Below the pieces are notes generated by a model. It saw only the letters and a list, made by a program, of their open reading frames with translations, was not told the origin of the DNA and made no database searches. A program made the translations under genes and the position numbers. From Candidatus Iainarchaeum sp. (lineage in GTDB: Archaea; Iainarchaeota; Iainarchaeia; Iainarchaeales; CSSED10-239): a stretch of 10,199 bases of DNA. This document shows, piece by piece, positions 6,645 through 10,181 of this stretch; the stretch's first letter is position 1, and every line of letters starts with the position of its first letter. The stretch lies in assembly GCA_028700905.1 (NCBI GenBank), contig JAQVRT010000025.1, positions 1 through 10,199 of the forward strand. The letters are read 5' to 3'.

Positions 6645-7097
6645 ATGAAAAAAAAAGTATCAAATAAACAAAATTTAATAATAGCTTTATTAATTATTCT
6701 AATTATTTTAGTAATATTTTTTATTGCTATATTTTCTGCAAATATTTTATATAGTAATATAAAAGAAAATAATATAGATTATAACTTGACAATTTCACAA
6801 CTTGATCAAAATTCAGATGTTGTTGTAAATATGGGTAATGATGTTAATTTTTCTGAATTAAATGAATTTACTTTACCTGAAAGTGAACTTGTTAATGAAT
6901 ATTTAATCTCAAGTGAAAATATTTCAAATTTAAAAAATATATATTCTTTTTTATTTGATGAAGCCTTAGTTTCTTCTTATGGTTATCTTCAAACTGAAGA
7001 AGGCGATTATATTTTAGAATATAAAGATTATATTTTAGTTTTTAATAAAGATGAAAATCAAACTAAAAGTATTTGGAGAGTACAAAATTTAGAATAA
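6645..7097 (+). CDS. Hypothetical membrane-anchored protein (single N-terminal TM helix)
   Basis: The ORF starts 8 nt after the preceding stop. Its basic N-terminus MKKKVSNKQ is followed by a ~23-residue hydrophobic helix LIIALLIILIILVIFFIAIFSA, then an acidic N/S/E-rich ~110-aa domain. I recognise no family. Confidence 0.6.
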   Translation: MKKKVSNKQNLIIALLIILIILVIFFIAIFSANILYSNIKENNIDYNLTISQLDQNSDVVVNMGNDVNFSELNEFTLPESELVNEYLISSENISNLKNIYSFLFDEALVSSYGYLQTEEGDYILEYKDYILVFNKDENQTKSIWRVQNLE

Positions 7098-7113: not shown

Positions 7114-9663
7114 ATGTGTTTTTTTATGGATGATGCAAATTTAATGCTTTTAAAAAAAAAAGTAAAAGCTATAAAACAATATAAAGGTCAAGGGACTCAG
7201 CTTATAAGTCTTTATCTTCCACCTGATGCAGATAGAAGCTCTGCAACTAAACAATTAACTGATGAAATGAGTCAATCTTCAAATATTAAGAGTGCTCAAA
7301 CCAGAAAAAATGTTCAAGCTGCTTTAAAAAGAATTATAAATTATCTAAAACAAATTGATTTTAAACTTCCAGAAACAGGTTTAGTATTATTTTCAGGAGA
7401 TGTTTCAACTAACCCTTCTAAATCAGATGTAATTTTACTTGCAATTGTTCCACCAGTAAGACTTACAACTAAACTTTATTGGTGTGATTCAACTTTTCAT
7501 ATTGCTCCTTTAGAAGATATGGCTCAAACAGATGATGTTTATGGCCTTGTTGTAATGGATAAACGAGAAGCAACAGTTGCAATTTTAAGAGGTAAATCTA
7601 AAGAAATTTTATTTAGTGAAAGTTCAAATGTTCCTGGTAAAACAAAAGCCGGAGGGCAATGTTTAAAAGAGGCTTTTATTTCTCTTTCTAATGGAGATTT
7701 AATAGATATTTCTAATATTTCTTCCAAAACTTCTTTAACTTCTGTTAATTTTAATAAAGATAAAATAGTTAATTCAAAAATTACAAAAAAATGGTCAGTT
7801 ACAAAAAACAAAACTTACATTATTAAAACCAAAGCTCCTGGTATGGAAATTAAAGCAAGTGAAGACCATATTTTTTTTGTCTTAACACCAGATGGAATTA
7901 TTCAAAAAATTTCAAAAGAATTAACTTTAAAAGATTATTTATTATTTCCTGAAAAATTATCTTATAAAAATAAATCTTATTCTTTCAATACTAAAAAGTA
8001 TATATCTAAACTAAATAAACCTTCTATTAAAATACCTTCAAAACTAGATAATAACTTTTCTCAGTTTTTAGGTTATCTTTTAGGTGATGGTTCTATTGAA
8101 ACTGATAGATTAACTTTTTATGAATCTAGAAAAGATGTTATTTTAGAGTATAAAAAGTTATTTGATAAATATTTTAATATAAATTCTTCTTTAACTTTTA
8201 GAGATTCTAAAAATTATTATCAATTAAGGGTAACTTCAACTGCTCTTGTAAGATTAATTAAAGAAGAGTTTAAGGAAATTAAAAAAGCAAGAGATTCTTT
8301 AATCCCTTCTAAAATATTAACTTCTTCAGATAAAGTTTTATCTTATTTTTTAAAAGGTCTTTATGATGCTGAAGGATATGTTAATTTTTCTAAAAAATCA
8401 ATAGATATTGGAATTAATAATAAACAACTTGCTTTACAAATACAGCTTGTTCTTTTTAGATTTTCAATTATTGGCTCTCTTCAAGAGTATGATAATAAAC
8501 AAAATCCATATACTGATAACCATCGTTTTGTAATTTCAATTTCAGATAAAGAATCATTAGCTTCTTTTGAAAAAAATATTAATTTTACATCTCTTGAAAA
8601 ACAAAAAAAGATTAAAGCTTTTCAAAAAATAAAAACAAAAAAAAGTTTTTCAAGAACTCTTCCTGTATATGGAAGAAAGGTAAGGGAAGTTATTCAATCA
8701 CATGGCTATAACTTAGAACTTTTTCCAAAGGTAAGTAGTTTTTTTAATAATAACAGGATGATTAGTAAATCAGTATTTAAAACATCTATTTTAGATTATG
8801 TTAAAGATAAATCTCTTTTAAAAGATTTAAATAAATTTTATATTATGCCTTATTTTTGTGCAAAAATAAATTCAATAAATATTGAAAATAAAAAAACCAC
8901 AATGACAGATATTTCTGTTATAAACAAATCTTTTATTGCAAATGGTTTAATTGTTCATAATTCTGCACATCGTTTTGAAAGATTAAGAGATAAGTATGAA
9001 GAAGAATTTTATAAAAGAGTAGGTGAAAAAGTAAATACTGCTTTTGTAAATCTTGAAAATTTTAAAGGTATGATTGTTGGTGGTCCTGGGCTTACTAAAA
9101 ATGAATTTTTAGAGATAGGAGATTTAGATCATAGAATTAAAGATAAAATTTTAGGAACTGTTGATACTTCTTACACAGATGAATCAGGTATAAAAGAAAT
9201 TCTAGATAAATCTGAAGATATTTTAAAAGAAACTGGTTTAGTTCATGAAAGAAAACTAATTAATAAATTTTTTGAAAATTTAGCAAAAACAGGTCTTGCA
9301 AATTATGGTTTTCAAGATGTAATTGATGCCTTAAATATAGGTAAAGCTTCAACTGTTTTAGTTTCAGAAGGATTAGAGTGGACTGTTTTAATTTTTAAAT
9401 GTTTATCAGATAAATCTAGATTTATTAAAATTGTTAAAAATAAAGATGAAGTTTCAGATGCAATTTCTAAATTTGAAAATTCACAAGATGATTGTATGCA
9501 AGGAAAAGCAGAGCTTGTTGAAGAAGTTGATATTTATGATTATTTTATTGATATTTCTAAAAATACAAGTGCAAAGGTAGAACTTATATCTGTTGAAACT
9601 TTGGAAGGAAAACAATTTTTTGAAACTTTTGGAGGGCTTGCAGCTTTCTTAAGATATAGATAA
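7114..9663 (+). CDS. prf1: Archaeal peptide chain release factor aRF1, intein-containing precursor (182-aa N-extein + 434-aa intein + 233-aa C-extein)
   Basis: The exteins carry all aRF1 hallmarks. These are GQGTQLISLYLPP, the NIKS stop-codon recognition motif (7282-7293), YxCxxxF (YWCDSTF), GGQ (7651-7659) continuing after the insert as SAHRFERLR, then GGPGLTKNEF and the C-terminal domain. The spliced length of 415 aa is typical. An alternative start at ATG 7126 (MDDANL...) is equally plausible. Confidence 0.95.
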   Translation: MCFFMDDANLMLLKKKVKAIKQYKGQGTQLISLYLPPDADRSSATKQLTDEMSQSSNIKSAQTRKNVQAALKRIINYLKQIDFKLPETGLVLFSGDVSTNPSKSDVILLAIVPPVRLTTKLYWCDSTFHIAPLEDMAQTDDVYGLVVMDKREATVAILRGKSKEILFSESSNVPGKTKAGGQCLKEAFISLSNGDLIDISNISSKTSLTSVNFNKDKIVNSKITKKWSVTKNKTYIIKTKAPGMEIKASEDHIFFVLTPDGIIQKISKELTLKDYLLFPEKLSYKNKSYSFNTKKYISKLNKPSIKIPSKLDNNFSQFLGYLLGDGSIETDRLTFYESRKDVILEYKKLFDKYFNINSSLTFRDSKNYYQLRVTSTALVRLIKEEFKEIKKARDSLIPSKILTSSDKVLSYFLKGLYDAEGYVNFSKKSIDIGINNKQLALQIQLVLFRFSIIGSLQEYDNKQNPYTDNHRFVISISDKESLASFEKNINFTSLEKQKKIKAFQKIKTKKSFSRTLPVYGRKVREVIQSHGYNLELFPKVSSFFNNNRMISKSVFKTSILDYVKDKSLLKDLNKFYIMPYFCAKINSINIENKKTTMTDISVINKSFIANGLIVHNSAHRFERLRDKYEEEFYKRVGEKVNTAFVNLENFKGMIVGGPGLTKNEFLEIGDLDHRIKDKILGTVDTSYTDESGIKEILDKSEDILKETGLVHERKLINKFFENLAKTGLANYGFQDVIDALNIGKASTVLVSEGLEWTVLIFKCLSDKSRFIKIVKNKDEVSDAISKFENSQDDCMQGKAELVEEVDIYDYFIDISKNTSAKVELISVETLEGKQFFETFGGLAAFLRYR
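7660..8961 (+). mobile_element. Full-length class-1 intein with LAGLIDADG homing endonuclease, inserted after the Gln of the aRF1 GGQ motif
   Basis: Block A is CLKEAFISLSNGD (Cys1 at 7660-7662) and block B is GMEIKASEDHIFFV. LAGLIDADG motif 1 is FLGYLLGDGSI (8065-8097). A block D-like RDSLIPSKI follows. LAGLIDADG motif 2 is FLKGLYDAEGYV (8347-8382), block F is TDISVINKSFIANG, and block G is LIVHN (ends 8961) followed by the +1 Ser (8962-8964). The insert is in frame with no stops, 1302 nt = 434 aa. Confidence 0.9.
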
Positions 9664-9674: not shown

Positions 9675-10181
9675 TTGATAAAAACATTAAAAGCAAGAAA
9701 AATTACAAAAACTAATATTGGTTCTAAATTAGGGGTTGTAGATATTCGTAAAAGAATCATAGAAAATAAAACCTATTCTCTTTCCTACACAATAAAAGGT
9801 AAGTCTTTAGAGCTTAATTTTTTAATAAAATATAAAAAATCTAATCTTAGTGATTTTAAAAAAATTTATTCTGATCTTTTAAATATTGCAAAAGAAAAAA
9901 AAATTAAAAAAATATATACTTCTTCATGGGTATTTTCTGAAACAAAAGGTTTATCTGAAAGACTTGGCTTTAAGCTTGTTAAAGGAACTGATAAAAAACT
10001 AAACTTAATTAAAGAAAAATATCCTGATTATAAAATTATTGGTATTGAACAAAGATTTTCTACAGATCCAAGAAATTATGGTTTAACTCCTTGTTTAGTT
10101 TTAGAAAATAAATCTTTGAAAAAAGAAGTTGTAATTAATATGGATAAAAATATGCTTCCAATATATGTAAAGGAACTTTAA
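9675..10181 (+). CDS. Hypothetical protein (168 aa, basic, K-rich)
   Basis: The ORF has a Shine-Dalgarno-supported TTG start 11 nt after the aRF1 stop, and its codon usage looks like its neighbours. I recognise no family. A segment KKIYTSSWVFSETKGLSERLGFKLV faintly recalls the C-terminal part of GNAT folds, but no acetyl-CoA motif (Q/RxxGxG/A) is visible. Confidence 0.55.
   Translation: MIKTLKARKITKTNIGSKLGVVDIRKRIIENKTYSLSYTIKGKSLELNFLIKYKKSNLSDFKKIYSDLLNIAKEKKIKKIYTSSWVFSETKGLSERLGFKLVKGTDKKLNLIKEKYPDYKIIGIEQRFSTDPRNYGLTPCLVLENKSLKKEVVINMDKNMLPIYVKEL

Follow-up and report, generated by a model that had tools for sequence, protein, structure and literature searches.

A predicted class-1 intein at the GGQ motif of archaeal release factor aRF1 in Candidatus Iainarchaeum

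In a Candidatus Iainarchaeum genome (GCA_028700905.1), the sole class-I release factor identified is encoded by a gene that is interrupted exactly between its catalytic GGQ motif and the following serine codon, the boundary at which the archaeal release factor gene is most conserved. We consider it probable (roughly 0.85) that the insert is an ordinary mobile intein of the LAGLIDADG type, whose self-removal would leave a normal aRF1. The gene lies in a 10,199-nucleotide stretch of contig JAQVRT010000025.1 (hereafter the window; a slash denotes an insertion or splice junction throughout), which has a GC content of ~25% and carries a series of archaeal housekeeping genes, its plus strand encoding, besides aRF1, a Rad50-like C-terminus, PriS, a Gins51 C-terminal-domain protein, aIF2-alpha, a PAC2-family protein, HerA, a phosphoribosyltransferase and two unnamed ORFs. 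Neither of the ORFs flanking aRF1, at 6645-7097 (150 aa, with an N-terminal hydrophobic stretch) and 9675-10181 (168 aa), has a Pfam match.

The interrupted gene and its insert

The frame at 7114-9663 on the plus strand is open for 849 codons, uninterrupted across the whole gene, and scores 413.4 bits against the aRF1_eRF1 model TIGR03676 (cut-off 234.7). Pfam eRF1_1, eRF1_2, eRF1_3, Intein_splicing and LAGLIDADG_3 each match it above their own cut-offs; intein-bearing NCBIfam models match it too. Translation probably starts at 7126 (MDDAN), a start that is conserved in congeners, rather than at 7114, giving a precursor of 845 aa which matches the length of the database record. With its NIKS, YxCxxxF and GGQ motifs the ORF is a canonical aRF1 (Table 1), and motif mapping confirmed the earlier proposal that the first two lie intact in the extein with 434 residues inserted at GGQ. 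In HMMER alignments to the Halobacterium aRF1 structure 4af1, the extein halves cover residues 17-188 and 188-412 and abut at GGQ/S, so that removal of the insert would restore a seamless GGQ-S loop.

Table 1. Features of the interrupted aRF1 gene, in positions of the window
Feature	Position	Strand	Supporting observation
N-extein: domain N and beginning of domain M, with GGQ at its end	7126..7659	+	TIGR03676 positions 3-174 = 7144-7662
NIKS, stop-codon recognition motif (residues 57-60 of the 849-aa frame)	7282..7293	+	
YxCxxxF motif, YWCDSTF (residues 122-128)	7477..7497	+	
GGQ catalytic motif (residues 180-182); Gln is the intein -1 residue	7651..7659	+	
Predicted class-1 intein with LAGLIDADG homing endonuclease domain, 434 aa (residues 183-616)	7660..8961	+	Pfam Intein_splicing, LAGLIDADG_3
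Cys1, predicted first splicing nucleophile	7660..7662	+	Invariant in 111/111 aligned alleles
Block B S-x-x-H (SEDH), intein residues 67-70	7858..7869	+	S67, H70 invariant in 111/111
First LAGLIDADG motif, intein residues 136-145, with Asp143	8065..8094	+	Asp in 107/111 alleles
Second LAGLIDADG motif, intein residues 230-240, with Asp236 and Glu238	8347..8379	+	Asp in 111/111, Glu in 100/111
Blocks F and G, intein residues 417-434: Asp417, terminal His433-Asn434	8908..8961	+	D417, H433, N434 invariant in 111/111
C-extein: Ser+1, remainder of domain M, domain C, TAA stop	8962..9663	+	TIGR03676 positions 174-402 = 8962-9660

The insert begins with Cys and ends with His-Asn, and every residue that defines a class-1 intein is present (Cys1, S67-x-x-H70, D417, H433-N434 and Ser+1), as are two LAGLIDADG motifs, each with an acidic residue, and an endonuclease profile match, indicative of a class-1 intein with a nested LAGLIDADG endonuclease. 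Profile scores are 59.3 bits for PF14890 Intein_splicing (cut-off 35.8), 24.8 for TIGR01445 (cut-off 24.5) and 60.9 for PF14528 LAGLIDADG_3, and the insert also matches solved structures of V-ATPase inteins (7qsu, 7qss) and of the endonuclease PI-PfuI (1dq3). Its DNA has a GC content of 21.7%, compared with 28.1% for the exteins.

Translation would give the 845-aa precursor, from which the intein is expected to leave by the standard class-1 route suggested by its motifs: an N-S acyl shift at Gln-Cys1, movement of the thioester to the hydroxyl of Ser+1, cyclisation of Asn434, and an O-N shift producing a native GGQ-S peptide bond. Conservation of the residues concerned likewise points to an insert that is active in splicing. 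The product would be a normal aRF1 of ~411 aa reading TAA, TAG and TGA, and its motifs, its sole-copy status and the use of all three stops suggest that it releases peptides at each of them. The intein and Ser+1 are made 233 codons ahead of the stop, so splicing may start on the ribosome. Since ~50 kDa would sit on a GGQ loop that must reach the peptidyl-transferase centre, the precursor is presumably inactive, and selection would therefore be expected to hold splicing fast and constitutive.

Release factor complement and genetic code

Profile searches (TIGR03676 and PF03464) of the source genome (781 kb in 88 contigs, 83.7% complete, 1.1% contamination) identified one aRF1, matched as two halves in one frame. 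The single further eRF1-like gene, on contig 44, is pelota (181.7 bits on the pelota model, cut-off 177.65), and no bacterial-type release factor (PF00472, RF-1 domain) was found in this 84% complete assembly. Congeners G002 (a single contig of 839,632 bp, 94% complete) and G034 (two contigs) likewise contain only an intein-bearing aRF1 and pelota. More broadly, a second aRF1 is absent from all 22 intein-bearing genomes of the order in a sample of 81. The second, uninterrupted aRF1 that the sequence-only reading had named as a finding against it was therefore sought in the source genome, G002, G034 and the 22 intein-bearing genomes and found in none; its presence in the missing ~16% of the source genome is unlikely. 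The contig bearing pelota also carries, ~6 kb from that gene at 11332-11862 on the minus strand (locus L016), a gene for an archaeal HemK-related methyltransferase (TIGR00537, 122.9 bits, cut-off 87). We take this family to be the one that methylates the GGQ glutamine, making the protein a candidate GGQ-glutamine methylase.

Within the window the terminators are TGA for priS, TAG for herA and TAA for aRF1; from this usage and the canonical extein motifs, the sequence-only reading had seen no sign of codon reassignment. Stops across the whole genome bear this out, with TAA terminating 468, TAG 122 and TGA 102 of 692 non-overlapping ORFs of at least 100 aa, and the standard code with TAA, TAG and TGA as genome-wide stops applies. 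Reassignment was also considered directly and rejected: from a starting value of 0.79, coding density reaches only 0.80-0.81 when TGA, TAG or both are read as sense, and each of the three stops is in use.

Homologous alleles, distribution and probable homing

A search of a large protein collection returned 411 proteins at E <= 0.001. Domain content was taken from the best 120 of these, all of which combine eRF1 and intein domains. Their sources are numerous independent assemblies, and those with a taxon name, the nearest named homologs among them, are labelled Woesearchaeota, Nanoarchaeota, Diapherotrites or Ainarchaeum. Certain JGI entries already bear the name 'eRF1/intein/homing endonuclease'. 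The GGQ/C junction is present in 120 of the 121 proteins retrieved, and the +1 residue is Ser at 117 of the 120 junctions parsed by regular expression. We aligned 111 inteins, namely those from database proteins with a cleanly parsed in-frame GGQ/C...HN/S junction, and found C1, S67, H70, D417, H433 and N434 to be invariant, with the acidic residues of the endonuclease retained in 100 to 111 of the alleles. The aRF1 GGQ-site inteins of other DPANN archaea thus share insertion site and splicing residues with the source allele. Most of them are ~500 aa long and carry a 68-aa HTH_3 (XRE-type) module after intein position 114, separating the N-terminal HINT part from the first LAGLIDADG motif, whereas the source allele belongs to a clade of 434-aa alleles without this module. 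The aRF1 GGQ intein is abundant in public data and in part automatically annotated, and the present allele is an ordinary example within DPANN-type archaea.

Within the order, an intein at position 174 of the aRF1 model occurs in 22 of the 79 genomes with an aRF1 match, spread over 12 of 32 families, and its presence is polymorphic within families and within genera. It is missing from ~70% of genomes, one congener included; ~55 genomes of the 81 sampled have an uninterrupted aRF1, and none has both forms. The intein-free congener G051 (locus L008, G051:C13:3800-6000), with an extein 81% identical to that of the source, has a precise empty site (…GGACAA/TCCGCG…), as does G075. G025, a member of the same order with 58% GC (locus L011, G025:C1:136400-139000), has a 144-aa mini-intein at the identical GGQ/S site, which has no endonuclease domain and retains its splicing residues intact. 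Empty site, full-length intein and mini-intein correspond to the stages of a homing cycle.

Comparison of the source with G002 gave dN/dS ratios of 0.07 (extein), 0.26 (intein) and 0.22 (endonuclease part of the intein), showing that the splicing and endonuclease parts are both under purifying selection within the genus. The dS values of the extein/intein comparison are similar (0.40 vs 0.46), which indicates vertical descent within the genus, the intein having co-diverged with its host gene, rather than a recent invasion. Between families, the patchy distribution suggests horizontal transfer. Conservation of the endonuclease suggests that homing continues in the source lineage; the enzyme would cleave intein-free aRF1 alleles and so spread the element further through the population. 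Patchy occurrence, absence from a congener, a mini-intein elsewhere and the retention of endonuclease motifs together make up the profile expected of a selfish homing element.

The element has the hallmarks of the archaeal LAGLIDADG inteins found in aIF2, RNA polymerase, RFC, the V-ATPase A subunit and ribonucleotide reductase (PI-PfuI), with which it shares the class-1 HINT fold signature (Cys1, block B x-x-H, His-Asn end), the nested LAGLIDADG endonuclease, a patchy phyletic distribution and insertion into an essential single-copy gene at a highly conserved catalytic motif. It differs from them in its host, aRF1, and its site, GGQ/S; in block B it has Ser where Thr is usual. Inteins in comparably essential archaeal proteins (aIF2, RNA polymerase, V-ATPase) are documented, and the Novikova 2015 survey states that inteins are few in core translation components and in its main text does not mention release factors (PMC4760082). 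Our literature search, combining intein with aRF1, eRF1, release factor, GGQ and DPANN, found no description of an aRF1 intein.

The source genome (G000) contains at least three further inteins. An 842-aa frame on contig 75 (507-3035, plus strand; locus L013) carries a LAGLIDADG intein (Intein_splicing 105.8 bits) directly after a P-loop-like motif, GKRGGGK/C, in a host protein without a Pfam name. On contig 56 (362-3979, minus strand; locus L014) a 1205-aa enzyme of the PEP synthase/pyruvate phosphate dikinase type, classical among archaeal intein hosts, carries a LAGLIDADG intein at approximately residues 434-816, in the region of the PEP-utilizers mobile domain. A contig-end fragment on contig 3 (14379-14987, minus strand; locus L015) shows an intein C-terminus (…VVHN/T) followed by a TPP-enzyme C-terminal domain, and represents a fourth intein in this 0.78-Mb genome.

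Probable splicing dependence and alternative readings

The proposal that translation termination in this organism relies on protein splicing is probably correct, as no second aRF1 was found in the source genome, in congeners G002 and G034 or in the other intein-bearing genomes sampled from the order. Such dependence is common to every intein in an essential gene. The sequence-only reading had further stressed a self-referential element, in that release of each new precursor from the ribosome needs aRF1 that has already been spliced. This is true as far as it goes and is not special to the present case, since every release factor needs existing release factor for its own release; the self-reference adds nothing because splicing is autocatalytic without a cofactor and daughter cells inherit spliced aRF1.

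It had also been suggested that the Cys1-dependent reaction responds to redox state or temperature and thereby throttles all translation termination. Conditional splicing is known for other archaeal inteins, RadA for example (PMC5790916, PMC4513877, PMC11409957). The nucleophile of the aRF1 intein would be Cys1, any thiol is oxidisable, and with aRF1 as the sole release factor a block would be global. We nevertheless regard such a switch as very improbable, having found no evidence for it. No conserved redox partner for Cys1 was identified in the eight N-extein residues preceding the junction, at +1 or within the intein across the 111 alleles: the N-extein ends in KTKAGGQ without a Cys, the +1 residue is Ser, and Cys400, the sole other Cys of the intein, is replaced by Pro in 99 of the 111. 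No known redox-trap feature is therefore present. A needed regulator, moreover, would not be dispensable to so much of the order, down to a congener, and the mini-intein and HTH-bearing variants at the same site are more in keeping with a mobile element than with a finely tuned sensor. The conditionally splicing inteins of Pyrococcus/Thermococcus RadA, of mycobacterial SufB, DnaB and RecA and of Pyrococcus MoaA (a redox trap) do share with the aRF1 intein an essential host that needs splicing and a Cys1 nucleophile; the aRF1 intein, which is known here from sequence, differs in having neither a disulfide partner nor a conserved sensor feature. A related scenario, which we consider very improbable, is that stress such as Cys1 oxidation slows splicing in intein-bearing DPANN archaea. 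The precursor keeps its domains for stop-codon reading and GTPase binding; acting as a dominant negative, it could then compete with the mature protein and so impose a post-translational, genome-wide brake on termination or increase read-through.

Decay of the interrupted gene, with termination performed by some other factor that is unassembled or was not recognised, would be compatible with a source genome that is only 84% complete. We judge it highly improbable, however, as purifying selection on the extein is strong (dN/dS 0.07), its NIKS, YxCxxxF and GGQ motifs are retained, the frame is open through the whole gene, the splicing residues are invariant in the 111 alleles, the single-contig congener has only an intein-bearing aRF1 and pelota, and the source genome contains no bacterial RF-1 domain. 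Nothing was found in favour of an assembly or binning artefact, which has a negligible likelihood given that the same in-frame GGQ/C...HN/S arrangement recurs in 111 cleanly parsed database proteins, whose assemblies and sources are independent, as well as in the genomes of 22 species of the order.

The aRF1 intein thus reveals no new mechanism, and nothing found here suggests a regulatory switch. As a mobile LAGLIDADG intein it is a clean natural illustration of the rule that inteins insert where essential genes are most conserved, and it brings under that rule a translation factor and a site not covered in the intein literature searched. It may also provide a model for asking whether ribosome-binding factors still carrying an intein exert dominant-negative effects. 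A selfish element of 50 kDa can reside even in the universally conserved GGQ loop of a cell's only release factor, placing translation termination, across whole lineages of small-genome archaea, one autocatalytic step from failure.
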